The position numbers and the translations under genes were made by a program. The notes below the pieces were generated by a model. It ran no database searches. It was not told where the DNA came from and was given only the letters and a program-made list of their open reading frames with translations. DNA of 39,727 bases from the IMG/VR virus record IMGVR_UViG_2778261268_000004; one strand, 5' to 3'. Positions 1-15,244 of this stretch are shown here, in pieces (position 1 is the first letter of the stretch; every line of letters starts with the position of its first letter). Source of the DNA: a virus. Taxonomy: Duplodnaviria > Heunggongvirae > Uroviricota > Caudoviricetes.

Positions 1-1257
1 GTGCTTACCGATACAAAATTAAAAAACCTCAAGCCGCAGGACAAACTGTACAAGGTCTCCGATCGTGACGGGCTGTATGTAGCTGTGCTTACGTCAGGCA
101 CGGTCTCGTTTCGCTATGACTACCGTATCAACGGTCGCCGCGAAACACTGGTAATCGGGCAGTATGGGCGTGACGGTATCAGCCTGGCAGAAGCGCGAGA
201 AGAACTGATTGCTGCAAAGAAGCTGCTTAAAGCAGGCCAGTCACCGGCTGCGGCTAAACGTGACGGTATCAAAAAGATTCGTGGTGCCGAGACGTTTGCG
301 GTACATACCGACAGTTATATGAAACACGTCATCCTGGCTGACAGTACCCGCGCAATGAAGCAGGCGGTGATCGACCGTGACATACTTCCAGTTCTTGGCA
401 ACAAAATGATGACTGAAATTACCACATCGATGGTTCGTGATTTGTGTGACCGGATTGTCGAACGCGGTGGTCGGGCAACAGCAGTACAGGCAAGGGAGAT
501 CATCAGCAGCGTATACCGTCACGCCAATGACCGTGGTCATGGTTTGTTTAATCCTGCGGCTGACATTAAACCTTCGTCTATCGCCATATTTAAACCACGA
601 GAGCGAACACTGACACCAGAAGAAATTGGCCTGTTCTTCCGCACGCTGGATGCCATTGGTGCTATGGGCACTATGAAAATGGCTTTAAAGCTGGTGCTTA
701 TCACTATGGTTCGTAAAGGCGAGTTCACCAATGCAACGTGGGATGAAATAGATTTTAAAAAATGGACATGGACAATTCCTTCAGACCGCATGAAGGGAAG
801 CCGGGCGCACGTTATTTACCTGCCTAAACAGGCACAGGATATATTGGTCGGGTTACAGATGTGCGCTGGTGGAAGTGAATATCTGGCTCCTGGTCGTTAC
901 AATTTCCGGAAGCCATTATCTAATGCCGCGCTGAACTCTCTGATCGACAGAACGGTGAAAATAATAAATGAAGATGGTGAGCATATTCAGGATTTCACCG
1001 TACACGATATGCGCCGTACAGCCAGTACGTTGTTGCATGAGGCTGGTTATCCTTCAGACTGGATTGAAAAGGCTCTGGCACATGAGCAGAAAGGTGTGCG
1101 CGCCGTATATAACAAAGCGGAATACGCAAGACAGCGCGCCTACATGTTGCAGCAGTGGGCCGATATGATTGATTCCTGGATTGACGGGGAGCATACGGAT
1201 CTGATTCCGTTCTCCCCGTCGAAGTTTGAGAAGTGGATGGAAGACAGTAATAAATAA
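1..1257 (+). CDS. int: Tyrosine integrase, P4/CP4-57 type (5' end cut by window edge)
   Basis: ORF runs from window edge; N-terminus LTDTKLKNLKP resembles P4-family integrases a few residues in; C-terminal catalytic region HDMRRTAST...VYNKAEY. Confidence 0.9.
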   Translation: MLTDTKLKNLKPQDKLYKVSDRDGLYVAVLTSGTVSFRYDYRINGRRETLVIGQYGRDGISLAEAREELIAAKKLLKAGQSPAAAKRDGIKKIRGAETFAVHTDSYMKHVILADSTRAMKQAVIDRDILPVLGNKMMTEITTSMVRDLCDRIVERGGRATAVQAREIISSVYRHANDRGHGLFNPAADIKPSSIAIFKPRERTLTPEEIGLFFRTLDAIGAMGTMKMALKLVLITMVRKGEFTNATWDEIDFKKWTWTIPSDRMKGSRAHVIYLPKQAQDILVGLQMCAGGSEYLAPGRYNFRKPLSNAALNSLIDRTVKIINEDGEHIQDFTVHDMRRTASTLLHEAGYPSDWIEKALAHEQKGVRAVYNKAEYARQRAYMLQQWADMIDSWIDGEHTDLIPFSPSKFEKWMEDSNK

Positions 1258-1259
1258 TT

Positions 1260-1919
1260 CTATCCTTCCTGGACTTTGGTAAGCGTCAGATTTCCGCAGA
1301 ACACTGCGCCGGTGTCGATGTACATCTGGTTTGCATACACCAGTGGGTGATGTGCTGGCGTATGACCGAAGATGAACAAATCGGCACCGGTTATCTCCGA
1401 GACAATACCGTCCTGCGCGTCGCTAACCCGCTCACGATTCCATATCACCATTTCTTCTGGTACTGGCTTATCGAATGCGTATTCGTTGTGCGGGTAGTCT
1501 GCGTGACAGATGACGACCTTCTTATTGCCGGTAACCAGTTCGATAATCATCGGGAGGTTGGTAATCTTTGGCAGAAGGTATTTGAGTTGCACATCCTGCT
1601 CAGAATCAAGTTGGTGCCACCATCCACCGCCGTTTGACATCCAATGTCCGAAACTTCCGCCGTTGACCAGTGCATCCAGCATCATCTGCTCATGGTTGCC
1701 ACGAACAGCTCGGAACCACGGCATAGTAATCAAATCCAGGCATTCGACGTTTTCAGCGCCGCGGTCAACAAGGTCACCAACGGAAATAAGTAAATCGCGC
1801 GCCGGGTCGAATGAAACTTTGTCGAGTTCGTTCATCAGCAGCGTGTAGCACCCATGCAGATCGCCGACGACGAAGATATTGCACCAGTCAGCGCCATTGA
1901 TGCGTTGATATAGGTTCAT
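1260..1919 (-). CDS. Ser/Thr protein phosphatase, lambda-PPase-like metallophosphoesterase
   Basis: Motifs GDLHG, GDLVDRG, GNHE in MNLYQRING... protein; start at internal ATG 1919 chosen because the track ORF start lies inside the upstream gene. Confidence 0.85.
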
Positions 1920-2566
1920 GCTGCACGCTCCCGCCCCTGGTTGTCTATTGGTGACACCGGAGCATTGCTGAATGCATTTGTTAATCCGCCAATATCCAAC
2001 GCGTATCCAGGGTGTAGTTGCACTGCCGGGTCTTCGCACTGATTACCCCAAACATCGAAGCCATGAGACGACTGGCGGGCGAACAGTTCAATGCGAGAAA
2101 CATCGCCTAACAATTGCACAAGTTTTTCACGAACGACATCTGGTTTTCTTGAATGCTCAAGCCGCGGTGCGGTAAATGACTGAACGATCCCTGCATTAAT
2201 GCGCGTAGGTAGTTTTCCCTTAACTGCAAACAGGCAATCTTCACTATTGGCGCGAGTCATGTGCCCCATACCCATAACCAGTTTATCTGGTTGTCGACTA
2301 CCACATTTTATCCACGTGAAGCCCTTCATGGTCATCAGACGGAATCCCCAGGCTTCAACAACTTTTAGTGCTTCGAGTGGTTGTGTTGGCACCCACCACA
2401 TGGCCAACAGACAGTTTTCACCGGCCAAATCCCACACAGGAAGGCGGCAGATATCCAGCACACTCATAACAGGATATTTAAAGCCGGCACCGCGATTACC
2501 ATCTGCGGCTTTGTCCCGGTATACCCAGGGTGGATCTGCATAGATTAGTGTGTATTTCTTAGTCAT
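1916..2566 (-). CDS. MT-A70 family N6-adenine DNA methyltransferase (orphan)
   Basis: DPPW catalytic motif ([14 protein letters not shown]); stop overlaps phosphatase start by 4 nt; no restriction partner nearby. Confidence 0.8.
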
Positions 2567-2810
2567 AAACCACCCCACAACATCCTATGCCGCTATAGTC
2601 GCCACGGCGAAGGCCGTTACCTTTTGTGATACATTGGTCCCTGCGAACCGCGATCCTTGCACGCTCAACATCACCAGAAGCAACATCCATACACTGAAGC
2701 CAAAGGTGGGCGGCAATGCGGAACTGCCCTTTTTTCTCTCTTTCAATCGCGCGTTTTTCGATCTCTATCGCCGCAGGAGTAACGGCAACAACCTTTGAAT
2801 GGCTGCGCAT
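2559..2810 (-). CDS. Hypothetical small protein (start uncertain)
   Basis: Open frame in operon context between AlpA-like gene and methyltransferase; weak AAGG before ATG 2810; no recognisable motif. Confidence 0.3.
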   Translation of the reverse strand: MRSHSKVVAVTPAAIEIEKRAIEREKKGQFRIAAHLWLQCMDVASGDVERARIAVRRDQCITKGNGLRRGDYSGIGCCGVVYD

Positions 2811-2967
2811 TGAAACCTTGTTCATGTGATATTTTTCAAGTCGGCTTAACTTTCTCACTTAATCCAACCCTCTCTGAAAATTAATGCCAGCAGATAAAGC
2901 CATGCTGAAACAGAGGCCAGGAATAAGTACCATCCTGACCATTTGCTCCAGTGCCTTAGCAGCGCAC

Positions 2968-3216
2968 TCATGCAGCGTTGCTCACAGGACGATATACACG
3001 TTGCTGAACAGGAGGCTTTTTACCCTGGAACTCTGCCGGGCTTGCTGCCTGACGTTCATCAAGCCAACGCTCAACTTCATCACGGTTCCATGCGCAGCGT
3101 TTATCGGTGATATACCAGCGTTTAGGAAATTCCCCTGCGCGCTCCATACGGTCGATAGTGCTCCATGACAGTGGCACCACCGCCAGGAGTTCCTTCTTAC
3201 CTAATGCACCTTTCAT
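2968..3216 (-). CDS. AlpA-family DNA-binding protein (probable excisionase/regulator)
   Basis: LSWSTIDRMERAGEFPKRWYITDKRCAWNRDEVERWL matches the AlpA/Vis-type HTH pattern; GAGAGG RBS. Confidence 0.7.
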   Translation of the reverse strand: MKGALGKKELLAVVPLSWSTIDRMERAGEFPKRWYITDKRCAWNRDEVERWLDERQAASPAEFQGKKPPVQQRVYRPVSNAA

Positions 3217-3265
3217 AAATACCTCTCTTGGTTGCAGTGCGGCGCGCGTGGCGCCGCGGTGGTGG

Positions 3266-4147
3266 TTACATAGATGTTTCGTTTAATTCTTCCCGACGAA
3301 CGCTGTAAACGTCGGTGGCTTTTGCCAGCAGTTCGTCATCATCTGAAAGTTTTTGTGCAATGTATTTGTAAGCCTTATCCAGTTCGGAGACAGTGATGTA
3401 ATTCATCGCTGCGCTGGTAAAGGCCATCAGCATTTCTTCTGGATCACGGCTATCCGCTTTACGCGTTTGCTCATCAGGCTTTTTCGCTGGTTTAGCGTTG
3501 ATCAGACTGTTCATTCCCGCAGCAGTGGTCGTTTGCGGAGTAATGTCTCGCTCAACGCGCGGTGCCGTTTCCTGTAATTCGTCAGGGGTGTAAACACCGA
3601 GAAGTACATCAGGAGCGTGCAGGCGAGCCCATCGTTTCGTGCAAAGATAGGCAAGCTGCTGGCGCGGATCCTGTTCCCACAATGGAGAGTTACGCACTCC
3701 GGCTTGCGCCATACTGATGGTAAGCTCACGGGGTTCTGCTTCTCCTTTAAGAACTGCTGACACAGTTACCGTCAGATTCGGTGATTTATCTGTTTTGCCG
3801 TTAACATTCGACCAGTCACCGCTCCAGCGATAATTCAGGCGTGTCGCTAGCAGGCTGGAAGAGGATACGACCGCGTTTACCAACTGTGCTTCGTAGCCTA
3901 ACGTTCCGTTTACCACATGCGTTTTCTGCGCCACGGCGAAAGGATTCATTCCCCACTGTGCCGCCTGCATGGTCACCGCCAGACAATCGGCAGGTTCGCC
4001 TTTAAGATGTTTCGGTACAGTCGCTTTGCTTTGTGACATCAACTCCGCGAAACGCACCAGTTGATTCATGCCCTCCGGGCTGAAGATTGCCGCAGCAGTA
4101 CCTACAGTTGCGCCTGGTTGTGATGTGATTGCGATATCATTGCTCAT
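3266..4147 (-). CDS. Single-strand annealing protein, Red-beta/Bet-like
   Basis: C-terminal LCTKRWARLHAPDVLLGVYTPDE...ERDITP resembles lambda Bet; paired with an upstream exonuclease. Confidence 0.8.
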   Translation of the reverse strand: MSNDIAITSQPGATVGTAAAIFSPEGMNQLVRFAELMSQSKATVPKHLKGEPADCLAVTMQAAQWGMNPFAVAQKTHVVNGTLGYEAQLVNAVVSSSSLLATRLNYRWSGDWSNVNGKTDKSPNLTVTVSAVLKGEAEPRELTISMAQAGVRNSPLWEQDPRQQLAYLCTKRWARLHAPDVLLGVYTPDELQETAPRVERDITPQTTTAAGMNSLINAKPAKKPDEQTRKADSRDPEEMLMAFTSAAMNYITVSELDKAYKYIAQKLSDDDELLAKATDVYSVRREELNETSM

Positions 4148-4965
4148 ACGTACATATCCTGTTTACGTGCCCAGTCAGGGCGTTTAATAATTTCCACTCC
4201 GCCCCACTCATCGTTGATGCGGCATTCGTGATAGGTATTCAGATCCCGGTGGAACAGAGCGTGCCCGGCATCGACATCCGGCGCATCCAGCTCGAACACG
4301 CGTACCGGATACCGACCACAATCAATGCTTTCGCTCACGGCAAGAAAGAAAAAACCATGCGGCTGACCAGTAACCCTCATTGCGCCTTCGCGGTACATTG
4401 CGTCCTGCACGTGGTAGCGGAATTCCTCGATGTGGCGTGCAAAACGGTCCATATCTGCAACCTTTTTCACGTCGACGATCACGTTGTGCTCGTTCAGCCA
4501 TTTGTCTGGACGAATTCGGCACAACTCACCCGTATCTTCATCGTTCCAGTACATTGATGCTTCGCAGTAACCAGGTGCTTCCAACATCCAGCGTGCCGCC
4601 GGGTGAGCCATTGCGCTAGCACGCATCAGCTCCAGTTTTCGCCACTGCTCTGCATCAAGTACCGAAATCCCCATATCCGCTACATCACGAATAAATGCCT
4701 CTTCGTCAGCTTTACCTTGTTTTGTCCGACGATCGAATTTCGGTGAAACGATGAAGCGTTTGTCAAACTCTCCAGGTTCCAGAAGCAGACAGTGCAGAGC
4801 AGTACCCATGTCCAGTGCAGACTTCTTCTCTTCGTCTTCCGGAGCAGCCTTCACCCATTTCAGAAGGGCAGGGTTCTTAGCCACCATATCTAGCTGCGAC
4901 TTACTCACGCCGTCACCGGCGTGGTAGTCCTCGTTGCTGATATCGAAATAAATTCCCGGATTCAT
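4144..4965 (-). CDS. PD-(D/E)XK 5'-3' exonuclease (RecE/exonuclease VIII-like)
   Basis: N-terminal GIYFDISNEDYH and D...E.K (DVKKV) nuclease signature; translationally coupled to the Bet-like gene. Confidence 0.75.
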   Translation of the reverse strand: MNPGIYFDISNEDYHAGDGVSKSQLDMVAKNPALLKWVKAAPEDEEKKSALDMGTALHCLLLEPGEFDKRFIVSPKFDRRTKQGKADEEAFIRDVADMGISVLDAEQWRKLELMRASAMAHPAARWMLEAPGYCEASMYWNDEDTGELCRIRPDKWLNEHNVIVDVKKVADMDRFARHIEEFRYHVQDAMYREGAMRVTGQPHGFFFLAVSESIDCGRYPVRVFELDAPDVDAGHALFHRDLNTYHECRINDEWGGVEIIKRPDWARKQDMYV

Positions 4966-5261
4966 GCCGCGTCCCTCTGCCCATCAATCTGATCAGCCAG
5001 ATCCCAGCGGGCGATAATTGCCATTGCCTCGCGCCGGTAGGCATCCATTAGTTCTTCGAACTCAGGGCTGTCTTTAGCGGCCTCTAGTACTTCCTGGCGA
5101 ACGCCTTTAACTGTTACAACGTCGAAAGTTGATGCCAGTTGATGAAGCCGGATACTCTCAATCAGTTCAACTTGTCGGTCATATAGCTGTTCTGACAGGC
5201 GGTAGTCCTTGTCGAATGCCAGCATGATTTTTTGAAGATTTTTCTGCTGATTAACGTTCAT
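4962..5261 (-). CDS. Hypothetical phage protein
   Basis: ATG 5261 preceded by GAGGTGG; overlaps neighbours in operon fashion. Confidence 0.5.
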   Translation of the reverse strand: MNVNQQKNLQKIMLAFDKDYRLSEQLYDRQVELIESIRLHQLASTFDVVTVKGVRQEVLEAAKDSPEFEELMDAYRREAMAIIARWDLADQIDGQRDAA

Positions 5262-5268
5262 ACCCACC

Positions 5269-6303
5269 TCAATATTTGATATACGCGTCCTGCACTTTGC
5301 CGCCAGCGATAGCCAACATTGCTTTCTGCGCGAATTCTTCGGGAATGCCTTGGGCTATCAGATCTGCGATTACTCTGCGGTTAACGGTACGGCGATGCTC
5401 TTTATCTGCAGCTCGGCGCGCTTCTTCGTCGGCGATACGCTTCTGTTCGTCAAGGCGGGCTTTTTCTGCCGCCTCTTGGCGTCGGCGTTCCTCGGCAACG
5501 GCTTCTTCTTTTTCGCGTCGTGCACGCTGCTCTGCTTCAATTCGCTGACGTTCTGCTACTTCAGCACGTGCTTTTTCTTCCACCGCCAGGCGTGCCGCAG
5601 CCTCAATTTCAGCTTTCGCTTTTTGTTCAGCTTCGAGCCTGGCCTGTTCAGCAGCTTCCCGGCGGATATTCTCTTCTCGCTCAATGCGCGCTTTTTCCTC
5701 CGCTTCTTTGCGAAGTCGCTCCAGCTCAGCGGCTTCATGCTCGCGTTTTTGAGCTACTGCGAGTGATTCTTCCAGTTTCTGGATGGTTGAATCCTTGGCT
5801 ACTCCAGCTTCTGCTGCGTACTCCTGCCAACTTTCATCAAGTGCTACTGATTTAGCCTCTTGAATTCGTTCCTGAATATCAGATGATGGCAAGTAGTTTC
5901 CGGAGAGATCGATCACGTCAGCTAGTGCTCGCAAATTTGTCAGGCGTTGTTGCAGTGCTTCAGTGCGTAATTTCTCAGCATTTTCCCACTCGGTGAGTGG
6001 GCGGCGTACTTCATCACGAAGCCGATCGCATTCGGTTACGAAGCGTCGTAACTCTGCTTCAACTACTTTCGGCTGTTCTTTCAGGCGTTTCAGATAATCA
6101 CGTCCTGGTTTTTCTACCGCTGTTTTACTTCTTGAAACCTTCGCAGCCAGAGATGCAATGCGCTTTCTGCCTTTGTCTGTGCTAATGTCAGGCACTTCAT
6201 TAACACCTTCACGGATCTGCTCGAGAAACTTTTCCAGCCCTTTTTCAACGTAAATTCTTGGTGCCATGTCTGGTGTGATTTCGATGATTGATAATTCACT
6301 CAT
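5269..6303 (-). CDS. Hypothetical protein with Ala/Glu/Arg-rich coiled-coil repeat region
   Basis: 344-aa ORF with GGAGTAGG RBS; central EAAEQARLEAEQKAKAE-type low-complexity tract. Confidence 0.6.
   Translation of the reverse strand: MSELSIIEITPDMAPRIYVEKGLEKFLEQIREGVNEVPDISTDKGRKRIASLAAKVSRSKTAVEKPGRDYLKRLKEQPKVVEAELRRFVTECDRLRDEVRRPLTEWENAEKLRTEALQQRLTNLRALADVIDLSGNYLPSSDIQERIQEAKSVALDESWQEYAAEAGVAKDSTIQKLEESLAVAQKREHEAAELERLRKEAEEKARIEREENIRREAAEQARLEAEQKAKAEIEAAARLAVEEKARAEVAERQRIEAEQRARREKEEAVAEERRRQEAAEKARLDEQKRIADEEARRAADKEHRRTVNRRVIADLIAQGIPEEFAQKAMLAIAGGKVQDAYIKY
5400..5800 (-). repeat. Low-complexity coding repeat (Ala/Glu/Arg/Lys heptad-like tract)
   Basis: Compositionally biased GC-rich tract within the 5269-6303 gene; produces spurious antisense ORFs. 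Confidence 0.6.
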
Positions 6304-6311
6304 TTGCTAAC

Positions 6312-6461
6312 CTACTCCCATATCTCGTTATCGTTTGCCACATCGCGAGCTTCTTTGCTGACGAAAGCCCACTTAATGCCTTCCTGTAAGGTGCGGAACT
6401 TCCAGCTCATGAATCCGCATGCAGTAACGCAGTACCAACCGTTGATGATTTTCCACTGCAT
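6312..6461 (-). CDS. Small hypothetical protein (49 aa, Trp/Cys-rich), first gene of leftward early operon
   Basis: Not in ORF track (<60 aa); ATG 6461 preceded by GAGGTAA SD; stop 8 nt before the next gene start; downstream of a TTGACA promoter. Confidence 0.35.
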   Translation of the reverse strand: MQWKIINGWYCVTACGFMSWKFRTLQEGIKWAFVSKEARDVANDNEIWE

Positions 6462-6480
6462 AATTTGTTACCTCGGTCTG

Positions 6481-6495
6481 TTACCGTTGAGGTAA
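6481..6495. promoter_or_regulatory. Operator-like palindrome TTACC-gttga-GGTAA (OL-like, site 1)
   Basis: Perfect 5-bp inverted half-sites; between leftward promoter and first leftward gene. Confidence 0.6.
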
Positions 6496-6523
6496 TGATT
6501 ATGCGTATCTGGTTTGATGTCAA
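6494..6523 (-). promoter_or_regulatory. Candidate leftward early promoter (PL-like)
   Basis: TTGACA (revcomp at 6518-6523) with CATAAT/ATAATC-like -10 about 14-16 bp downstream; flanked by the two operators. Confidence 0.45.
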
Positions 6524-6542
6524 TAGATATGAGTTAAAAAAA

Positions 6543-6557
6543 TTACCCATAAGGTAA
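6543..6557. promoter_or_regulatory. Operator-like palindrome TTACC-cataa-GGTAA (OL-like, site 2)
   Basis: Perfect half-sites, just upstream of the leftward promoter. Confidence 0.6.
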
Positions 6558-6570
6558 TCCTGCTGGCAAT

Positions 6571-6593
6571 AAAAAAGCCGCCATGAGGCGGCT
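6571..6593 (-). terminator. Rho-independent terminator after the repressor gene
   Basis: Stem AGCCGCC/GGCGGCT with T-run on the minus strand. Confidence 0.7.
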
Positions 6594-6614
6594 TACTTAC
6601 TGAAAAATATGATT

Positions 6615-7199
6615 TTATTGTTTGTTTTTTTCGTTCTGGCTGATGACAAATTCAATGTAACTTTCGATCTTTGCCTTCTCTGTTTCGGGTAACAATGCGT
6701 AGCGCGAGCGGTCATAGTTGATAGTCGCAGGGTCGTGCGGGTGAATCAGTAATTCATAGCCGTGACGCCCGAATGCGGATGCAACATTCTCCAGGGTGGA
6801 AATGGAAACGCTGACCTCATTGTTTAACAGGCGGCTGATTGTCACCTGGGCGACGCCGGATGCGCGGTGAAGTTTTCCCTGTGTTGAAAGGTCGCGGCTT
6901 TCGCTCATCCAGCGTTCCAGGTTGTGAGCCGCCAGCTGACCAATGTCGCTTGGGCCGACAGGCTGAAAACCTTCCTGAGAAAGCGAGCGATCGATATCAA
7001 GCCAGTTACGGGGTTTATTGGCGGCAGCTTCAATTTTTCGCGCAACCTGGTCGCCGATAACCTTCTTGCCAAGAGCCCAGCGGTTTACCAGATTTGCCTG
7101 AGTTCCAAGTTTTTCTGCCATCCGCGTCTGAACACCATTGAATTCACGGTCGATCAAGTCGTTGAGATTTTGCCTGCGGACGTCCTGGATACTTTTCAT
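6615..7199 (-). CDS. CI-like prophage repressor with two HTH (XRE-type) domains, no S24 peptidase domain
   Basis: Two HTH-like segments (QTRMAEKLGTQANLVNRW and GVAQVTISRLLNNEVSVS); divergent from a Cro-like gene; flanked by palindromic operators; terminator downstream. Confidence 0.7.
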   Translation of the reverse strand: MKSIQDVRRQNLNDLIDREFNGVQTRMAEKLGTQANLVNRWALGKKVIGDQVARKIEAAANKPRNWLDIDRSLSQEGFQPVGPSDIGQLAAHNLERWMSESRDLSTQGKLHRASGVAQVTISRLLNNEVSVSISTLENVASAFGRHGYELLIHPHDPATINYDRSRYALLPETEKAKIESYIEFVISQNEKNKQ

Positions 7200-7254
7200 T
7201 TTCTGGAAAATCGCCTCATATATGAATCAGTAGATGATTCAATTTAAAGCAATA

Positions 7255-7269
7255 TTACCCAACAGGTAA
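7255..7269. promoter_or_regulatory. Operator-like palindrome TTACC-caaca-GGTAA (OR-like)
   Basis: In the 154-bp divergent region between repressor and Cro-like genes. Confidence 0.6.
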
Positions 7270-7302
7270 ATGCACCCCATAGGTAACTATCCTTGATTTT
7301 TG

Positions 7303-7317
7303 TTACCTTATGGGTGA
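7303..7317. promoter_or_regulatory. Operator-like imperfect palindrome TTACC-ttatg-GGTGA (OR-like)
   Basis: Same divergent region; an isolated GGTAA half-site lies at 7282-7286. Confidence 0.5.
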
Positions 7318-7353
7318 ATATTTATTATCTGAAATAAATATCAGGCAATAGCT

Positions 7354-7584
7354 ATGAGCGATAACGGACATTTCGATTTCAAAAAGCACTGGCTTGCACT
7401 TACTCCGGATGAGCGTGAAGCCTTCGCACAGGAAGCCGGAACGACGAGTCACTATATCCAGACTCACTTAACAGGTAAGCGCAAAATGCCAGGTAAGGTA
7501 TTGATGAATGGGCTTTTTAAAGCCTGTAAAACAAGACAATGGCTGCGCTCAAAAGCAGAACTGGCATACTTCTTCTACTCATGA
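7354..7584 (+). CDS. Cro/YdaS-like small DNA-binding regulator
   Basis: 76-aa protein divergent from the repressor; HTH-like QEAGTTSHYIQTHLTGKRKM; terminator follows. Confidence 0.7.
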   Translation: MSDNGHFDFKKHWLALTPDEREAFAQEAGTTSHYIQTHLTGKRKMPGKVLMNGLFKACKTRQWLRSKAELAYFFYS

Positions 7585-7606
7585 TATCCAGCCACAACCC
7601 TCTGTA

Positions 7607-7628
7607 GACCGCCATCCGGCGGTCTTTT
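7607..7628 (+). terminator. Rho-independent terminator after the Cro-like gene
   Basis: GACCGCC-atcc-GGCGGTC followed by TTTT. Confidence 0.7.
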
Positions 7629-7734
7629 CATATCTATTCGCACCTCAAAGGTAATAAAAAACCAAATGTGGTTGATCTTTTTTTTGTGTCAGCACAAAAT
7701 GACCGTAATCCCAATACTAATAACAGGGCTTACC

Positions 7735-7935
7735 ATGGAAATCATTACACGTATTGATGCCGCAAAGCGCGGACTTAAACGCTATTACACCGGAAAACAA
7801 TGTAAGCACGGACATGACAGTGAACGCTGGGTTTACAACGGACACTGTGTTGAGTGCACCATGGAATCAAACCGTCGCATCAGGGCAGAGATTAAGCAGA
7901 TCATGATTAATTCCTCCCCACAACACTCAAGCTGA
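7735..7935 (+). CDS. Hypothetical small zinc-finger-like protein (start uncertain)
   Basis: CKHGH...CVEC pattern; track start ATG 7666 is part of the ATGTGGTT motif and lacks an RBS, so an internal ATG is preferred. Confidence 0.4.
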   Translation: MEIITRIDAAKRGLKRYYTGKQCKHGHDSERWVYNGHCVECTMESNRRIRAEIKQIMINSSPQHSS

Positions 7936-7950
7936 TAGCGGAGATTAATC

Positions 7951-8766
7951 ATGAGCAGACATGCAACAGATTGGGCCTGGGAGACAGATCCAGGCAGCTC
8001 ATCATTAAAGCTCATACTGCTCTCGATGGCTGACAGAGCCGATGAATATAACCTCTGCTACCCCAGCATAGAACGCCTAGTTAAAGACACTTGCCTGAAT
8101 AAAAAAACCGTGCAGGCCGGACTTATATCGCTCATGAAAATGGGGCTTATTTCAGATACCGGAGAGAGAAAGGGAGCGACGAAAAGAGTGCGGGTTTTCT
8201 CTCTTAATATAACCAAAAACGGGAACATTAAAGGCAACCGGGAAGGGGGTAATGAACCCAAAAACGGTAATGTTACCGAAAACGGGAATATACCCAAAAA
8301 CGGGATGTTGAATGATCCCAAAAACGGGATGTTGAATGATCCCAAAAACGGGATCCAGAACCAGTCATATAACCAGTCATTTAACCAAGAGAGGGAGAGC
8401 AGGACAAAAACCGGGGATTCTGTGCCTCATGACCCCGGCGCAAACAACGCTGTGATGAATAACTTTGTTCCTCCAGGTGGGCCAGGGCAATTAGGCAAAT
8501 TTGTCATGCATGAACAATGGCAGCCATCAGATGACTTTCTTCGGAAAAGCTCATTGCAGGGGATCTACCTGGACAGTCTGCCAACGGCACAGGAACTTGC
8601 AGAGTTCAGAATTTACTGGATGGCTGAGGGTAAGGCATACCATCAGGCACAGTGGGAGCAGAAGCTGGCAAGGCGGCTGCAGATTAGCAGACAGAAGCAA
8701 TCAACATTACCTGATAACAACGTTCCGCACTGGAACAGCCCTGAAGCGTGGGAGGATTTCTTGTGA
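7951..8766 (+). CDS. Replication initiator (O-like; N-terminal HTH, DnaT-like C-terminus) containing iterons
   Basis: N-terminal DWAWETDPGSSSLKLILLSMADRADEYNLCYPSIERL HTH pattern; internal direct repeats; followed by a P-like gene. Confidence 0.75.
   Translation: MSRHATDWAWETDPGSSSLKLILLSMADRADEYNLCYPSIERLVKDTCLNKKTVQAGLISLMKMGLISDTGERKGATKRVRVFSLNITKNGNIKGNREGGNEPKNGNVTENGNIPKNGMLNDPKNGMLNDPKNGIQNQSYNQSFNQERESRTKTGDSVPHDPGANNAVMNNFVPPGGPGQLGKFVMHEQWQPSDDFLRKSSLQGIYLDSLPTAQELAEFRIYWMAEGKAYHQAQWEQKLARRLQISRQKQSTLPDNNVPHWNSPEAWEDFL
8213..8382 (+). repeat. Iteron-like direct repeats inside the replication-initiator gene (candidate origin)
   Basis: CCAAAAACGG(G/T)A at 8213, 8258, 8294, 8318, 8342 including two exact 24-bp tandem units (8293-8316, 8317-8340); AACCAGTCAT x2 at 8361-8382. 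Confidence 0.6.
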
Positions 8767-9548
8767 ACAACGTTTTTACCGCGATACAAAACCGTGACGG
8801 AGAAGCCCTTTCTCGCATGTCAGGTTATGAGCATCAGTACGTCAACAATGACAATGTGGTGAACATGTCAGCAGAGAGGCTTGTTGATGCCCTTTTCAAA
8901 CAGCTGAAACAACTGTTTCCGGCGGCAGTGGTAACCAACCTGAAGACGCCAGAGCAGGAAGTTGCTGCAAAACAGCAGTGGATTGCTGCGTTTGCCGAAG
9001 GGGGGATCCGAACCCGTGAACAGGTTTCTGCTGGTATGCGCCACGCCCGCGCCAGTGAATCTCCGTTCTGGCCGTCGCCAGGGCAATTTATCAAGTGGTG
9101 CAAAGACAGCAAGATGGTTCTTGGCGTCACCATTGACGATGTGATGGCGGAGTTTCACCGGTACAGCAAGGAAAAAAGTTTATATCCTGGTGGTCCCGAA
9201 AGATTCCCGTGGCGGCATCCGGTTATGTACTGGGTCGTATGTGATACCCGCCGTGCAATGTATCAGCGCCAGCTTAGCGAGATTGAGGTTGAGAAACACG
9301 CGCGCCGGCTGCTCGATGATTGGGCGAAAAAGGTGGCTTCCGGACAGCAGATACCCGATCCGGTGATCAGCATACAGGCAAAGTCAGAGCCCATGAGTAC
9401 ACCTCCGGACACAGGGAGAGACGTTTACCATCCACCGGGGCGAAGTTTCGGGTGCATGCCTAACGCCGCCACCCTTGGGGGAATAACACCGGCGCAGTGG
9501 CTGATGGAGGAATACAGGCGGGGAAAGGCGGCAGGATTTATCAAGTAA
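8763..9548 (+). CDS. Replication protein P-like (helicase loader)
   Basis: QQWIAAFAEGGIRTREQVSAGMRHARASESPFWPSPGQFIKWC resembles lambda P; GTG start with GGAGG RBS overlapping the upstream stop. Confidence 0.7.
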   Translation: MNNVFTAIQNRDGEALSRMSGYEHQYVNNDNVVNMSAERLVDALFKQLKQLFPAAVVTNLKTPEQEVAAKQQWIAAFAEGGIRTREQVSAGMRHARASESPFWPSPGQFIKWCKDSKMVLGVTIDDVMAEFHRYSKEKSLYPGGPERFPWRHPVMYWVVCDTRRAMYQRQLSEIEVEKHARRLLDDWAKKVASGQQIPDPVISIQAKSEPMSTPPDTGRDVYHPPGRSFGCMPNAATLGGITPAQWLMEEYRRGKAAGFIK

Positions 9549-9585
9549 TACCAGCGCGATAGCGCATTTTTTTACGCCTCAACAA

Positions 9586-9600
9586 TTACCTATGAGGTAA
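9586..9600. promoter_or_regulatory. Operator-like palindrome TTACC-tatga-GGTAA
   Basis: Upstream of DUF1064-like gene. Confidence 0.5.
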
Positions 9601-9620
9601 CAAAATATTCTAAACTCTAT

Positions 9621-9662
9621 TGATTTCGTGTCTTATGTGGTTTTTAATTACCTTAGAGGTAA
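9621..9662 (+). promoter_or_regulatory. Candidate promoter (TTGATT-17 bp-TTTAAT) with ATGTGGTT in the spacer, overlapping operator TTACC-ttaga-GGTAA (9648-9662)
   Basis: -35/-10-like hexamers at 17-bp spacing; operator overlaps the -10/+1 region; ATG at 9666. Confidence 0.5.
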
Positions 9663-9665
9663 ATC

Positions 9666-10010
9666 ATGAGAAAACAGATACAGGCTCTTGGTCGACTCAA
9701 AACAGGCCAGATGAACAAAACAGAATCTGCGTATTGCCAGCACCTTGAGCTGCGTAAACGTGCAGGGGAAATCGCCTGGTATCGATTCGAGGGTATCAAG
9801 CTGCGGTTAGCTGACAACACGTTCTATACGCCAGATTTCGCTGTGATGCTCGCCACCGGAGAGATGGAACTGCACGAAGTGAAAGGTTTCTGGACCGACG
9901 ACGCCAGGGTGAAAACCAAAGTCGCCGCAGATCAGTATCCGTTCCGAATCATCGGGGTAACGGTTAAGCCAAAGAAAGCAGGTGGTGGCTGGAACATCGA
10001 AGAGTTCTGA
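9666..10010 (+). CDS. DUF1064-like protein (putative PD-(D/E)XK nuclease)
   Basis: YTPDFAV...ELHEVKG nuclease-like motif; promoter plus two operators upstream. Confidence 0.6.
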   Translation: MRKQIQALGRLKTGQMNKTESAYCQHLELRKRAGEIAWYRFEGIKLRLADNTFYTPDFAVMLATGEMELHEVKGFWTDDARVKTKVAADQYPFRIIGVTVKPKKAGGGWNIEEF

Positions 10011-10071
10011 ATCGACGATCTTTTTAGTTATCAATGTAATCAATAAGTTATGTGGATAAGCGAGGGTAAAG

Positions 10072-10533
10072 ATGGAAAGTAATATCAAAGGGTTAGTTGC
10101 CGCCGGGCATGAGATGGCTTCGGAACTGAAAGCAGAATGTGGTGCCGTTGATATGCGTAGTGTGGCAAAGCTGATCAGCGATTTGGCAACGCAACTGGAA
10201 GTGCAACTGGTGCGTGCTAATGCGCTGGCGGCGGAGAATGCAAAGCTGAAGAAGTTCTGCAAAGACGCTGCATTCGATGCCGATTACGAAGCAGAGCTAG
10301 GTATGGAGCGTGGTGGATTCAGTGATGCGCTTAACGAAATCAAAACCCCAGCCACCGATGCTTTTCTGGCTGAAGTACGGGCGCAGGGGGTGGAGATGTA
10401 CGCAGATAACCTCGACAACGGAGCAGACGACGCAGAACGAGGTGGTTTTGATTATGCCGTTAAGTTTCTACGCAGTGAAGCGTCTAGTGTACGTTTGTTC
10501 TCCGACCAGCTTCGCAAAGGAGGCAACCAGTGA
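10072..10533 (+). CDS. Ea22-like protein
   Basis: N-terminal ...ELKAECGAVDMRSVAKLI pattern typical of lambdoid Ea22-like proteins. Confidence 0.5.
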   Translation: MESNIKGLVAAGHEMASELKAECGAVDMRSVAKLISDLATQLEVQLVRANALAAENAKLKKFCKDAAFDADYEAELGMERGGFSDALNEIKTPATDAFLAEVRAQGVEMYADNLDNGADDAERGGFDYAVKFLRSEASSVRLFSDQLRKGGNQ

Positions 10534-10784
10534 GTAATTCAGCACGACTACAGCTTGGTTTTTCACCGCTATCAAAAACTATCATGCTGGCAAAAATGCG
10601 CGATGTTGAAGGTGGACGTATGCGCGTTGGCAATGATCCAGGTCGTGATGTTACCAATGAGGCTGCTCAATTGGTGTGGCGACTGGTCATGGCTGAAGGT
10701 GGTGAGATCGCGTGGGAGCTGGATGATGGTTCTCGCATGGTGTTGAAGGCAGAAAAACAGGAGGCAACCAGTGAGCAAGATTGA
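10530..10784 (+). CDS. Hypothetical phage protein
   Basis: Coupled ORF in nin-like block. Confidence 0.4.
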   Translation: MSNSARLQLGFSPLSKTIMLAKMRDVEGGRMRVGNDPGRDVTNEAAQLVWRLVMAEGGEIAWELDDGSRMVLKAEKQEATSEQD

Positions 10785-11301
10785 CTATCAGGTACTGCGT
10801 GAGGCAGCAGTAGCAATTGAAACAGTAGCAACGCCTCAAAAATTGCTGGCATTTCGTATGAAAGTCACACCTCAGGTTGTGCTGGCTCTACTGGATGAAC
10901 TGGAAGCCAAAGACAAAGCATGGTCCGCACAGGACAACCATATCAACCAGCAGGCTTACCGAATTGAATCGCTGGAAAAGAAGAATGGCGAGCTGGGAAG
11001 ATCGCTGGAAGCCGCAGAGAAGCGCATAGCAGAACTGGAAGCCGAACCTGTAAGCCAAACTTGCAAGTTGAACGAGCCATCGGGCAACTCTCCGGTAACT
11101 CCGGGTGGTTGGATAAGCTGTAGTGATCGAATGCCGAAAGGGTATGCTGATGTGTTAGTGACCGACGGCGAGCATGTCGAGGTTAAATGGTGGGATGAAT
11201 CTGGGTATTGGAATAGTTGGACGGAACTTAGCTCAGATATCCTTGCCCATGAAATAACTCACTGGATGCCGCTACCGGAGCCGCCGCAGGAGGCAAAATG
11301 A
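10771..11301 (+). CDS. DUF551-like protein with coiled-coil N-terminus
   Basis: C-terminal ...THWMPLPEPP signature. Confidence 0.55.
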   Translation: MSKIDYQVLREAAVAIETVATPQKLLAFRMKVTPQVVLALLDELEAKDKAWSAQDNHINQQAYRIESLEKKNGELGRSLEAAEKRIAELEAEPVSQTCKLNEPSGNSPVTPGGWISCSDRMPKGYADVLVTDGEHVEVKWWDESGYWNSWTELSSDILAHEITHWMPLPEPPQEAK

Positions 11302-11651
11302 TGGACTATTCACAGTTAAGTGATTTTGAAATTAACAGAATGGTAGGAGACATAATTTTTAAAGGCCTTTGGGCGTGTAAACCGGAAACATCAGGGAATA
11401 ACACCAACAAATGGTATTACGGAAATACTGATACAACTTTTGAGCCATTAAACCCTTTACCTGACTACTGCAATAATCCATCGGATGCATGGCCTATTAT
11501 TGTTGATAATAAAATCAGTCTAACCTGCCACCAATCTCGCGGTGAGTGGTCAGCTGTTTTTAATGCCGAGAACATTTGCTTTCATGCGAATAATCCACTC
11601 CGAGCCGCCATGATTGTATTTCTCATGATGCAGGAAAATCAGAATGGCTAA
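11298..11651 (+). CDS. NinX/DUF2591-like protein
   Basis: MDYSQLSDFEIN N-terminus typical of NinX-like proteins. Confidence 0.5.
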   Translation: MMDYSQLSDFEINRMVGDIIFKGLWACKPETSGNNTNKWYYGNTDTTFEPLNPLPDYCNNPSDAWPIIVDNKISLTCHQSRGEWSAVFNAENICFHANNPLRAAMIVFLMMQENQNG

Positions 11652-11982
11652 ATCAGCAGCAGAGCGCAAAGCCGCTCAGAGAGCCAGACAAGCTGCATCT
11701 GGTGTGCGTAAGCTGGAAATTGTGCTTGATGCTCAGGAAATTGAAATGCTGGAGCGTAACTGTGCCGCGCGTCGCCCAGGGCGTGCGCCTTACGAATTTG
11801 GTGAGTATATAGCGTTACTGATCCGCCAGGATGATGCACGCGTGCGCGGGCGTATAAAATCGATCAGTAGAAAACGTTGCGGTAAGTGCGGCGAGAGAGT
11901 TCCAGTTAATTCATGTCCGTGTAATGGTGACTCACAATGCTGGGTGACTAAAGGCTGGCATGAAACGAAATTAATAGTGTGA
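11644..11982 (+). CDS. Hypothetical protein with C-terminal zinc ribbon (possible regulator)
   Basis: CGKCG...CPC cysteine cluster; last gene before the terminase; stop lies inside a GTGACATGTCAC palindrome. Confidence 0.5.
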   Translation: MAKSAAERKAAQRARQAASGVRKLEIVLDAQEIEMLERNCAARRPGRAPYEFGEYIALLIRQDDARVRGRIKSISRKRCGKCGERVPVNSCPCNGDSQCWVTKGWHETKLIV

Positions 11983-11990
11983 CATGTCAC
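11979..11990. repeat. Perfect 12-bp palindrome GTGACATGTCAC (copy 1)
   Basis: Exact string; overlaps stop codon of the 11644-11982 gene; terminator 40 bp downstream. Confidence 0.9.
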
Positions 11991-12031
11991 GAGTAGATTA
12001 TGCATGATGAATTTGACGGGTTTTGAATACT

Positions 12032-12058
12032 GCCGCCAACTATGGCGGCTTTATTTTG
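12032..12058 (+). terminator. Rho-independent terminator before the terminase genes
   Basis: GCCGCC-aacta-tGGCGGC followed by TTTATTTT. Confidence 0.65.
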
Positions 12059-12068
12059 CATGGTACTA

Positions 12069-12101
12069 TTACCACAACGGTAACTATTACCACGGTGGTT
12101 A
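12069..12101. promoter_or_regulatory. Tandem operator-like sites TTACC-acaac-GGTAA and TTACC-acggt-GGTTA upstream of terminase small subunit
   Basis: Direct repeat CTATTACCAC x2 forming one perfect and one imperfect palindrome. Confidence 0.45.
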
Positions 12102-12103
12102 TG

Positions 12104-12697
12104 ATGTCTGCTGAACCTAAAACCTATAAACGCAAATCAACGCAATTTAAGCCACTAACAGCAATGCAGGAGGCTTATTGCCAGTCATACATCAAAACGC
12201 CTGAAAACCAGACTCAGGCAGCGATTAACGCAGGATTCTCCCCAAATACAGCGGCAGTTAAAGCCAGTGTCATGATGCGCGATGAACGCATTCAAAAACG
12301 GATTGCCGAGTTGATGGAGGAGCGCAACAAACGAATGCGCGTCAGTGCTGATTACGTTCTCATGCGCCTGGTGGAGATCGACCAGATGGACGTGATCGAC
12401 ATCCTCAACGACGATGGGAGCCTTAAACCAATCCGTGAGTGGCCGAAAATCTGGCGCACTACGCTTAGTGGCTTTGATCTGTCATCGACCATCATGAACA
12501 TGAACGAGGATTCGATAGAGACAATCCTCAAAAAAATTAAATGGCCTGACAAGGTGAAGAACCTTGAGCTGATTGGTAAGCATGTTGATGTCAACGCGTT
12601 CAAAGAACGTCTGGATGTTAATGTGAATGTGACAATTGCTGATCGCATAGCAGCAGCCAGGAAGAGACTGAAAGAACGTCAGGATGGCAATCAGTGA
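12104..12697 (+). CDS. Terminase small subunit
   Basis: SPNTAAVKASVMMRDERIQKRIAELMEE pattern; ATG 12104 after GGTGG RBS; overlaps large subunit. Confidence 0.7.
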   Translation: MSAEPKTYKRKSTQFKPLTAMQEAYCQSYIKTPENQTQAAINAGFSPNTAAVKASVMMRDERIQKRIAELMEERNKRMRVSADYVLMRLVEIDQMDVIDILNDDGSLKPIREWPKIWRTTLSGFDLSSTIMNMNEDSIETILKKIKWPDKVKNLELIGKHVDVNAFKERLDVNVNVTIADRIAAARKRLKERQDGNQ

Positions 12698-14169: not shown

Positions 14170-14199
14170 TCCGCTGGTTGGGATAATGTCGTTGATATC

Positions 14200-14243
14200 C
14201 TCTGATGAGGATAAAACAAAGCCAGCTCATCGGCTGGCTGTTT
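14200..14243 (-). terminator. Terminator hairpin after gp49-like gene
   Basis: GCCAGC-tcatcg-GCTGGC with T-rich run on the minus strand. Confidence 0.5.
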
Positions 14244-14255
14244 GTGACATGTCAC
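14244..14255. repeat. Perfect 12-bp palindrome GTGACATGTCAC (copy 2)
   Basis: Exact string; adjacent to hairpin 14221-14238. Confidence 0.9.
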
Positions 14256-14259
14256 GGTG

Positions 14260-14631
14260 TTATTGCTCGCTTAGCTTCTGCTTCAGCAAGTAACCTTCGA
14301 GCATCCAGATTTTGTTTACAGCATTCTGCCGGGCAATCTTCCGACCAATTTCTGCATCAAAGTTTTCCGGGCTTGCACAGGCGCTCTCTCCGGTGACGGT
14401 GAAGCCGTTGCGCAGCACCAGGACGCAGAACGTCAGCAGAGAAAGTGATTCGTGCGGCTGGTAGTTTACCTCTCCGCCAGTATGTTTCGCTTTTATGGCT
14501 TTGCCAAAGGCACCATCTTCTGCTGTGAAATATGCCTCCTGAGCAATAATGCCTTCGATATGGTCTGGCGTAACGCGCGGTGCCGTTTTGCCTTTCTCAA
14601 CGATTTCTTTTTCGATTTGCTGGTCGTTCAT
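14260..14631 (-). CDS. N4 gp49/Sf6 gp66-family protein (moron)
   Basis: 123-aa minus-strand ORF downstream of the tRNA with its own terminator; family call from remembered pattern. Confidence 0.6.
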   Translation of the reverse strand: MNDQQIEKEIVEKGKTAPRVTPDHIEGIIAQEAYFTAEDGAFGKAIKAKHTGGEVNYQPHESLSLLTFCVLVLRNGFTVTGESACASPENFDAEIGRKIARQNAVNKIWMLEGYLLKQKLSEQ

Positions 14632-14830
14632 AATCTCACCTTAAAAAAAATGCCCGGCGAACCAGGCGAACTGGAAGCAATGAGTTATGCCTTCCGTGGC
14701 TGTACTGGTTTACAGCATGAAGTCATCGCAATGGCGTCCTGCTGTAAAAAGGGCGGTGGTAGTCCTTCAAGGGAAACCATCACCGCCAAGCCTCTGGAAC
14801 TTCTGGCATCACGGTCCTTAGGCGTGATTC

Positions 14831-15229: not shown

Positions 15230-15244
15230 TTACCTGAAAGGTAA
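15230..15244. promoter_or_regulatory. Operator-like palindrome TTACC-tgaaa-GGTAA upstream of the virion module
   Basis: Perfect half-sites; ATGTGGTT at 15289-15296 and GGTAAT at 15302-15307 nearby. Confidence 0.5.

Follow-up and report, generated by a model that had tools for sequence, protein, structure and literature searches.

Probable accessory end of a leftward early operon

We conclude that the minus-strand genes lying next to the integrase gene in the DNA analyzed here (39,727 nucleotides, hereafter the window) probably form the accessory tail of a leftward early operon that is under repressor control and belongs to a temperate podovirus of the phiV10/epsilon15 type, integrated beside guaA. 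The transcript would first carry the recombination genes (exonuclease and RecT), followed by an AlpA-type excisionase gene, and then four overlapping genes which, in order, would encode a 38-aa membrane peptide, a PerC-family protein, an MT-A70 methyltransferase, and a lambda-type phosphatase. The methyltransferase would most likely methylate GATC in phage DNA, duplicating the host Dam in rapid lytic replication. The last place in the operon, at the integrase, would be a variable cargo slot, in which the small DUF1382 gene of phiV10 would have been precisely replaced by a phosphatase gene, acquired most likely from the nin region of a lambdoid phage. Sequence-level support covers the gene identities, their overlaps, the gene swap and its frequency, and the layout of the operon.

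Judged by its closest relatives, the source of the window (1..39,727) is a phiV10/epsilon15-type (Uetakevirus) prophage adjoining guaA. In a nucleotide comparison, PAS61 was 98.4% identical to window positions 1-4200, the prophage of E. coli VG48B2, which adjoins guaA, was 100% identical to positions 1200-1960, and the flanks of the accessory region shared 96.6-98.4% identity with phiV10 and PAS61 DNA. The P4-type tyrosine integrase gene (1..1257, plus strand; from the ORF call) is convergent with the operon; it is annotated as integrase in PAS61, phiV10, and VG48B2, where the gene adjoins guaA. RefSeq product names for the phosphatase, the methyltransferase, and the PerC gene, including those in PAS61 and VG48B2, are already the names that we arrived at. 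On these matches, the three genes belong to known, annotated families, the element that carries them is an E. coli prophage of a common kind (phiV10-type), and the genes are largely ordinary. The papers describing PAS61 and ZX5 contain no discussion of these accessory genes, and an Rfam scan of the entire window gave no match within the region of the three genes.

Gene overlaps and operon control

The sequence-only reading had described the last three genes as translationally coupled, with a gap of 2 bp to the integrase stop codon, and both statements hold. The minus-strand neighbors at 2559..2858, 1916..2566, and 1260..1919 overlap one another, and positions 1258-1259 separate the convergent stops, which are TAA at 1255-1257 for the integrase and TAG at 1262-1260 for the phosphatase. 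The stop of the methyltransferase gene shares ATGA (1919-1916) with the start of the phosphatase gene, whilst an 8-nt overlap (ATGACTAA, 2566-2559) joins the stop of the PerC gene to the ATG of the methyltransferase gene. The chain is not limited to these three genes, since a 38-aa ORF and an AlpA/Xis-like gene also overlap upstream: the GTG start of the PerC gene overlaps the stop of the 38-aa ORF as GTGA, and the start of the 38-aa ORF overlaps the stop of the AlpA gene by 4 nt. The 38-aa ORF (2855..2971, minus strand), which had previously been missed, is coupled on either side and, by its translation, encodes a single-helix membrane protein; equivalents are annotated in phiV10 (p35), epsilon15 (gp32), Tyrion, and PAS61. 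At the head of the overlapping chain is the gene for an 82-aa AlpA-family excisionase/regulator (2968..3216, minus strand), which scored 24.2 bits against Pfam Phage_AlpA and matches phrog_66, “excisionase and transcriptional regulator.” The curated Pfam thresholds used throughout were 21.5 bits for Metallophos, 23.9 for MT-A70, 22.6 for PerC, and 21 for Phage_AlpA. Such tight gene packing is usual for phage operons and is nothing particular to these three genes.

That the genes occupy the distal end of a leftward early operon, as had been proposed, is borne out by a PL-like promoter, operator-like repeats, and a scan that found no strong internal terminator. The promoter (TTGACA-17-AATCAT; 6523..6495, minus strand) has 10/12 matches in a promoter scan, which is a simple consensus match and returned 4 sites against a mean of 8.6, that is, fewer than in shuffled sequence. 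It adjoins an operator-like palindrome, TTACCCATAAGGTAA, at 6543-6557, and we treat promoter and palindrome as a single feature (6495..6557, minus strand), at which the operon ending at 1260 likely starts. Operator-like repeats of the form TTACC-N5-GGTAA are located on both sides of the repressor gene, with more copies at 7251-7269 and 7303-7323, beyond the repressor gene from the PL-like promoter. No strong minus-strand terminator was found in the scan from this promoter to the phosphatase stop. From this layout, we infer that the operon is silent in the lysogen and is expressed only upon induction or infection. Internal promoters may fire in lysogens, and one has been reported for the methyltransferase homologue of Stx phages.

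Family and likely substrate of the methyltransferase

The product of 1916..2566 (minus strand) is a 216-aa MT-A70 (beta-class) N6-adenine methyltransferase with DPPW at residues 11-14 and a score of 77.5 bits against Pfam MT-A70. Its assignment by the sequence-only reading to this family, like that of the phosphatase to the PPP type, agrees with the Pfam results, in which both proteins are above threshold. The description as an orphan enzyme also stands: there is no neighboring nuclease, the adjacent genes being those for the PerC-family protein and the phosphatase, and the whole-phage annotation of PAS61 lists no nuclease partner. When seven window proteins were scanned with PADLOC, the only matches were to generic type II methyltransferase models, with 258 bits for the methyltransferase. 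The protein is 83% identical (155/187) to gp5 of phage PA8 (M.EcoPA8orf6770P) and 82.4% identical to the enzyme of the O104:H4 Stx phage, and its tail (residues 188-216) shows no relation to that of the Stx-phage enzyme. Among solved structures, the nearest are those of MT-A70 enzymes, METTL3 included.

By analogy with its relatives, the window's methyltransferase is most likely GATC-specific. M.EcoGV is entered as GATC-specific in one source (PMC6602927), and another reports that over-produced M.EcoGV methylates GATC in vivo (PMC10810198). The GATC specificity of PhiBZS1_p32 has been shown experimentally (PMC7556043). These two enzymes and M.EfaBMDam served as the reference group of Dam-like phage methyltransferases specific for GATC. 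The enzyme of HK639 is 75% identical to PhiBZS1_p32 and 45% identical to the window's methyltransferase. The window itself contains 157 GATC sites (about 4 per kb), with an observed/expected ratio of 0.75, which amounts to a mild depletion of no decisive weight.

We also considered that the protein is mainly an RNA enzyme, with 16S rRNA as its methylation substrate and a tuning effect on prophage induction, rather than a Dam-like DNA enzyme, and regard this as unlikely. The idea derives from the closest studied homologue, M.EcoPA8orf6770P, which was nearly inactive on DNA in vitro without its partner PNB-2, encoded upstream, and preferred 16S rRNA in 30S subunits when combined with PNB-2 (1:1); together the two proteins increase spontaneous induction (PMC10810198). 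The catalytic core shared with that enzyme, as well as the nearest solved structures, are consistent with such an activity. However, PNB-2 is without a counterpart here, as comparison of PA8 PNB-2 with the window proteins gave no similarity and the protein encoded upstream is unrelated (BLASTP E=37). Furthermore, the C-terminal tail, which the authors tied to PNB-2 binding, is replaced in the window's enzyme, and the modified base was left unmapped (PMC10810198). Lastly, three members of the prokaryotic subgroup that were tested in cells acted on GATC in DNA. Phage PA8 was found via the terminator sequence printed in PMC10810198; PA28 was tried as a substitute and rejected, its gp06 being a different 62-aa ORF with only the last residues in common.

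A PerC-family protein upstream of the methyltransferase

The small ORF upstream of the methyltransferase gene had been described as an uncharacterized protein of 84 aa. Its end coordinate, 2858, corresponds to a GTG start and gives 99 aa (2559..2858, minus strand), and it is PerC-family by Pfam (PF06069; 30.2 bits across residues 35-80, the central helices) and so named in RefSeq, where the PGAP label is PerC family regulator. The GTG is served by a Shine-Dalgarno-like sequence, GAGAGGG, and the 11 N-terminal residues (consensus M.KLTRLEKYH) are kept across genera, which the internal Met12 is not. The protein scored below the cut-off for the AraC negative regulator (ANR) model NF033650 of NCBIfam (23.6 vs. 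32 bits). A structural model of moderate confidence (pLDDT 73) has a TPR-like helical fold with a conserved disordered tail and suggests that the protein may act by binding another protein, not DNA; TPR-like fold matches are generic for helical hairpins, and a PDB sequence search with the protein gave only an insignificant TPR match.

Members of the PerC family can be activators, neutral, or repressors at LEE1 (PMC11773190), and we asked how probable it is that the window's protein is a lysogenic-conversion regulator of virulence genes (LEE1/ler), as are EPEC PerC and EHEC PchABC. The protein passes the Pfam PerC threshold, the cassette is found in O26 and other STEC genomes, and some mobile elements carry PerC-family genes that are capable of either activating or silencing LEE1. 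We nevertheless give this explanation little credence. In phages from several genera of enterobacteria, the 99-aa subfamily occurs in the equivalent operon, with 64-79% identity at the equivalent position in phages and prophages of Salmonella, Enterobacter, Klebsiella, and Citrobacter, and this conservation across genera speaks for a function within the phage cycle. In addition, the gene sits in a repressed lytic operon, some PerC-like genes are without effect on LEE1 (PMC11773190), and divergence from PerC is too great for a link by BLAST; a search of plasmids with the window's protein did not reach EPEC perC.

It is very improbable indeed that the PerC-family protein is instead a subunit that targets or activates the methyltransferase, taking the part played by PNB-2 in Stx phages. 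MT-A70 enzymes often need partners, the two genes share the 8-nt overlap, the prediction for the PerC-family protein is a TPR-like, protein-binding scaffold whose disordered tail is conserved, and both the methyltransferase tail and the upstream gene differ from those of Stx phages. Yet DUF1317, DGQHR, or other small genes intervene between the two in Tyrion, SPN1S, epsilon15, and a Klebsiella prophage, and Tyrion retains the window-type methyltransferase tail. Moreover, no PerC gene adjoins the methyltransferase homologues of Stx phages, HK639, and Hafnia phages. An obligate partnership was therefore rejected, given that adjacency varies (Tyrion, SPN1S, epsilon15, and Hafnia, HK639, and Klebsiella phages), and the partner idea as a whole was downgraded because adjacency is not conserved.

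The phosphatase and the cargo slot

The distal gene (1260..1919, minus strand) encodes a 219-aa protein of the lambda-PP/NinI type, a putative Mn-dependent Ser/Thr(/Tyr) protein phosphatase, as identified by 1G5B, phrog_246, and Pfam. Residues 1-217 align free of gaps with the structure of lambda phosphatase (1G5B; E=9e-100; 66.8% identity), and the catalytic and metal residues D20, H22, D49, R53, N75, H76, H139, R162, and H186 are all kept. The signature motifs GDLHG (GDxHG), GDLVDRG (GDxVDRG), and GNHE are also present, and the protein belongs to phrog_246 (NinI-like; E=9e-108) and scores 58.7 bits against Pfam Metallophos. It falls below the cut-offs of the equivalogs for host PrpA/PrpB (NCBIfam NF008516 and NF007425; 266 vs. 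326 and 221.6 vs. 332 bits, respectively). At the nucleotide level, the gene is about 79% identical to lambdoid ninI genes adjoining ninE. With this complement of residues, it is very probably a catalytically active lambda-type Mn-dependent phosphatase.

Homology to phiV10 covers window positions 1-1240 and picks up again at 1914. The swapped cassette (1241..1913; strand not applicable) thus comprises the phosphatase gene and the final 17 nt of int, and replaces a 203-bp DUF1382 segment of phiV10; the right breakpoint is just past the common ATGAAC start and the left breakpoint lies within the final six codons of int. The full phosphatase cassette is present in about 143/620 related E. coli prophages, where 620 is the number of genomes with any match, and among the matches listed most of the genomes that lack the phosphatase have DUF1382 in the slot. 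Other phages carry different small genes in the equivalent slot. A phosphatase at least 99% identical to that of the window was found among 50,697 phage records only in PAS61 and BP9, both of which have the int-phosphatase-methyltransferase arrangement.

In line with the sequence-only reading, which held counter-defence functions to be plausible, the methyltransferase and phosphatase might make up a counter-defence cassette, in which the former would shield DNA from restriction and the latter would reverse kinase or phosphorelay immunity or oppose the kinases of rival phages. Both genes lie in an operon predicted to be early and expressed during infection, and in a variable cargo region. NinI-like phosphatases are widespread (1456 phage records, virulent and temperate), and phosphorylation matters in conflicts between phage and host, an example being the T7 kinase which disarms defences (PMC13645617). 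The ninI gene of lambda is non-essential, and its dispensability in the laboratory fits a conditional function. We nonetheless find the proposal doubtful. Literature searches on NinI-type/lambda-PP phosphatases returned no reported biological or anti-defence role, about three quarters of the related prophages are without the phosphatase, and the PADLOC matches were limited to the generic methyltransferase models. A GATC enzyme would add little in Dam+ hosts, save against enzymes that cut unmethylated GATC; any anti-restriction benefit would be narrow, because the relatives tested in cells methylate GATC, which is already covered by the host Dam. The methylome of a lysogen would be uninformative in this respect, because the operon should be repressed there and Dam masks GATC methylation. 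The more specific proposal that the integrase-proximal slot is a counter-defence cargo site, with the phosphatase kept to erase phosphorylation needed by immunity or by a rival kinase, strikes us as quite improbable.

Little changes if these are ordinary accessory genes in a prophage of a common kind, with names that are already public. GATC specificity, phosphatase activity, and any gain for the phage are what we infer from the sequence. Near-identical phages that differ by exactly the phosphatase gene would provide a clean test bed for the role of the widely used lambda phosphatase; should the slot indeed be a site for counter-defence cargo, natural pairs with and without the gene (PAS61 vs. 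phiV10/ZX5, otherwise ~98% identical there) would give the lambda phosphatase family its first role. The methyltransferase is a useful comparison enzyme for the disputed substrate of its group (GATC in DNA vs. 16S rRNA), because this natural variant differs in its tail and does without the partner reported to target RNA. For annotation, we recommend the 99-aa GTG start for the PerC gene and the addition of the 38-aa membrane ORF.

Comparison with known systems

The closest known arrangement is the early-left accessory region of the Uetakeviruses (phiV10 p31-p36; epsilon15 gp29-gp33; PAS61), which share with the window an AlpA/Xis gene, the 38-aa membrane ORF, a PerC gene, an MT-A70 methyltransferase gene, one cargo gene, and a convergent integrase gene. 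The operator-like repeats of the window are at a position equivalent to that of the annotated repressor sites of epsilon15. The phosphatase of PAS61 is identical to that of the window, whereas the last slot holds DUF1382 in phiV10 and most E. coli relatives and a 60-aa gene in epsilon15.

Compared with M.EcoPA8orf6770P/M.EcoGV of Stx2 phages, the methyltransferase is alike in its 83% identity over residues 1-187, its DPPW motif, its location near the integrase end, and its upstream overlap, but its last 29 residues are unrelated to their tail; in addition, the Stx2-phage genes are flanked by PNB-2 upstream and DUF1382 downstream, rather than by the PerC and phosphatase genes, respectively. The PerC-family protein resembles the PerC/Pch/ANR family in being small, helical, borne on a mobile element, and above the Pfam PerC threshold, but forms a distinct 99-aa subfamily (phrog_868) marked by a GVVYD tail and a conserved LEKYH segment at the N-terminal end. 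Finally, the phosphatase equals lambda phosphatase in length, is 66.8% identical to it without gaps, has every metal-binding and catalytic residue, and, like it, would be expressed from a delayed-early operon, as predicted here; the lambda gene is located in the nin region, between ninH and Q, whereas that of the window lies in the leftward operon, at int.

Phage background and operon layout

Positions 1-4200 of the window share 98.4% identity with Escherichia phage vB_EcoP_PAS61. The flanking DNA shares 96.6-98.4% identity with phiV10, ZX5, TL-2011b and further phages of Uetakevirus, a genus of temperate podoviruses of the epsilon15/phiV10 type. An E. coli VG48B2 prophage situated directly downstream of guaA matches window 1200-1960 at 100% identity, and a guaA-adjoining site is the integration site reported for ZX5.

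We established the gene layout from an ORF listing and by directly reading the window sequence. The integrase gene, int (1..1257, plus strand), ends in a TAA that lies 2 bp from the TAG of the convergent phosphatase gene (219 aa; 1260..1919, minus strand). The stop of the methyltransferase gene (216 aa; 1916..2566, minus strand) overlaps the phosphatase start as ATGA, and its ATG lies in an 8-nt overlap with the GTG-initiated PerC-family gene (99 aa; 2559..2858, minus strand). This confirmed the three-gene layout ending 2 bp from the integrase stop that had been proposed from sequence alone. The proposed translational coupling of the trio was upheld in that the overlaps are real, but the chain extends upstream by two more coupled genes: a 38-aa membrane ORF (2855..2971, minus strand), whose stop overlaps the PerC-family start as GTGA, and an AlpA-type excisionase gene (2968..3216, minus strand), whose stop is overlapped by that ORF. 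RecT, exonuclease and further genes upstream are packed equally tightly. Such overlaps are the usual style of the whole operon, and nothing peculiar to the three genes.

A GC-rich hairpin (3239..3257; GCGGCGC, 5-nt loop, GCGCCGC) with no T-run lies in the 49 bp from the RecT stop to the AlpA start; a stem-loop at the matching place in epsilon15 is annotated as a transcriptional pause. A database protein, P0088, fuses the 38-aa membrane ORF to the C-terminal two thirds of the PerC-like protein, which probably reflects a deletion or frameshift within its source contig.

Placing the genes at the distal end of an early-left operon appears fair, since a PL-like promoter (6523..6495) follows the repressor gene (6615..7199, flanked by TTACC-N5-GGTAA operator-like repeats) and a terminator-like hairpin (6594..6575), our scan found no strong minus-strand terminator between that promoter and position 1260, and epsilon15 has annotated repressor sites at the corresponding position. 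The convergent phosphatase and integrase genes, 2 bp apart, have no terminator between them, so leftward early transcripts should read antisense into int; the sole terminator-like site on the leftward strand within 1..1262 is weak (235..223). In epsilon15, an RNase III site is annotated between the cargo gene and int. The operon also contains a 344-aa ORF (5269..6303, minus strand), very rich in Glu, Arg and Ala and coiled-coil-like by eye, which had no Pfam match; PAS61 lacks it and has just a 50-aa gene there.

Elsewhere, gathering-level Rfam matches to C4 antisense RNA (33285..33368, minus strand) and the Hfq-binding RNA isrK (33393..33469, minus strand) together resemble an antisense control element of the P1/P7 immI style; the adjoining ORFs (32526..33251 and 31747..32379) may include an antirepressor. 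A tRNA gene (14834..14907, minus strand) lies just after the terminase genes. At the opposite prophage end, two genes after the lysis cassette (38657..39727, minus strand) look like lysogenic-conversion cargo: a DUF5384 protein (179 aa) and a glycine-zipper 2TM, TraT-like protein (171 aa), whose start codon falls at the window's last base.

The phosphatase gene

The assignment to the PPP-type phosphatases was borne out by a gapless alignment to the lambda phosphatase structure 1G5B (E=9e-100, 66.8% identity) that retains D20, H22, D49, R53, N75, H76, H139, R162 and H186. Judging from these residues, the protein is very probably an active Mn-dependent enzyme. It did not qualify as an equivalog of host PrpA or PrpB.

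Homology to phiV10 extends to window 1240, within the final six codons of int, and restarts at 1914. The breakpoint falls directly after ATGAAC, the common start of the phosphatase gene and the phiV10 DUF1382 gene, so that the ATGA coupling signal was kept. By alignment, the exchange of DUF1382 for the phosphatase is a precise one-gene swap relative to phiV10. The region was matched in 620 of 5,426 complete E. coli genomes, and the whole cassette in 143; among the matches listed, most phosphatase-less genomes have DUF1382 in its place. The integrase-proximal slot holds different small genes in other phages of the group, in the manner of a cargo position.

Within the phage collection, PAS61 and BP9 alone carry the phosphatase at ≥99% identity. 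Among the next relatives, at 60-80% protein identity, are nin-region genes of lambdoid phages; the two listed were those of 2B8 and Nil2, each adjoining ninG. Some E. coli ninI genes adjoining ninE have ~79% DNA identity to the phosphatase gene, which points to a likely capture from a lambdoid phage.

The sequence-only reading considered anti-kinase counter-defence plausible. Lambda ninI is non-essential (PMC10695390) and its product is counted among lambda's poorly understood proteins (PMC3224144); we found no literature report of an anti-defence role for the lambda-type (NinI) family. The T7 kinase disarms host defences through mass phosphorylation (PMC13645617). Phosphorylation thus matters in phage-host conflict, and a phage or prophage phosphatase with an opposing role is conceivable, though speculative. 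PADLOC models gave only generic methyltransferase matches.

The PerC-family gene

The small ORF had been described as 84 aa and uncharacterised, and neither description held. It matches Pfam PerC (30.2 bits; cut-off 22.6) and, over its full length (1-99/99), PHROG 868. Database searching gave 137 relatives, the majority 97-99 aa long, spread over Escherichia, Salmonella, Citrobacter, Enterobacter, Klebsiella, Raoultella, Kosakonia and others. Aligning 24 of the 137 showed that the first 11 residues are conserved (consensus M.KLTRLEKYH, H11 nearly invariant), while the internal Met12 is not. Taken with the GTGA overlap and a Shine-Dalgarno-like GAGAGGG, this conserved N-terminus establishes GTG as the start codon and 99 aa as the length.

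An AlphaFold model (39 input sequences; pLDDT 73) has four helices and a disordered tail (residues 83-99) that is nonetheless strongly conserved (Y88, G95, V96, Y98). From this moderately confident model, we infer that the protein may be a small protein-binding adaptor rather than a DNA-binding regulator. PerC-family genes on other mobile elements have variously been reported to activate, ignore or silence the virulence promoter LEE1 (PMC11773190). The present subfamily occupies the same operon position in Salmonella, Enterobacter and Klebsiella phages, which makes a primary role in the phage cycle more likely than LEE control.

The methyltransferase gene

The methyltransferase passes the Pfam MT-A70 threshold, has a DPPW motif and has no nuclease gene beside it, in agreement with its description as an orphan MT-A70 enzyme. 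It is 83% identical (155/187 residues) to gp5 of Stx phage PA8 (M.EcoPA8orf6770P) and 82.4% identical to an O104:H4 Stx-phage enzyme; homology to the Stx-phage enzymes stops at residue 187.

The substrate of this M.EcoPA8orf6770P/M.EcoGV family is disputed between GATC DNA and 16S rRNA. M.EcoGV is regarded as a GATC-specific Dam homologue (PMC6602927), and over-produced M.EcoGV methylates GATC in vivo (PMC10810198). Within the same prokaryotic MT-A70 subgroup, digestion with MboI and DpnI, using a Dam- host, showed a Serratia phage enzyme to be GATC-specific; the Tn1549 enzyme M.EfaBMDam also has this specificity (PMC7556043). The Serratia enzyme is 75% identical to that of HK639, itself 45% identical to ours. 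With 157 GATC sites in the phage, substrate would be plentiful. The rival reading, an rRNA enzyme, draws on Gong et al. (PMC10810198), in which the purified PA8 enzyme was nearly inactive on DNA, preferred 16S rRNA in 30S subunits when in a 1:1 complex with PNB-2, the partner encoded upstream, and with PNB-2 raised spontaneous prophage induction; the modified rRNA base was, however, not mapped. Unlike PA8, the window has no PNB-2 counterpart (the protein encoded upstream is unrelated, E=37), and the C-terminal tail differs from the PA8 tail that Gong et al. tie to PNB-2 binding. Both differences count against rRNA and favor a Dam-like GATC DNA enzyme, which we consider the probable identity.

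We used gene neighborhoods in related phages and prophages to ask whether the PerC-like protein could stand in for PNB-2 as partner. This is unlikely: Tyrion has two small genes between PerC and methyltransferase yet keeps the identical type of tail, SPN1S has a DUF1317 and a DGQHR gene between them, epsilon15 and one Klebsiella prophage have a small gene there, and Stx phages, HK639 and a Hafnia phage have other upstream genes and no PerC. In Salmonella phage SPN1S (5017..6012) and SPC32H, the DGQHR-domain (DndB-like) gene immediately upstream overlaps the methyltransferase gene; this accessory-region variant may be a modification-related pair.

An anti-restriction role of the methyltransferase becomes less convincing given its likely GATC specificity. 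The sequence-only reading had also counted a lysogen methylome with no new motif towards refutation, but none is expected whether the enzyme is active or inactive, since the operon should be off and Dam covers GATC; such a result would refute nothing.

Comparison with known systems

The families and operon position proposed earlier stand; the "uncharacterised" label does not, as the names "serine/threonine protein phosphatase", "MT-A70 family methyltransferase" and "PerC family transcriptional regulator" are already in use in RefSeq. Each of the three genes adds a new member to a familiar family, within an equally familiar phage type. What modest value they have comes from a natural pair of phages with and without the phosphatase, and from a variant, lacking PNB-2, of a methyltransferase with a contested substrate.
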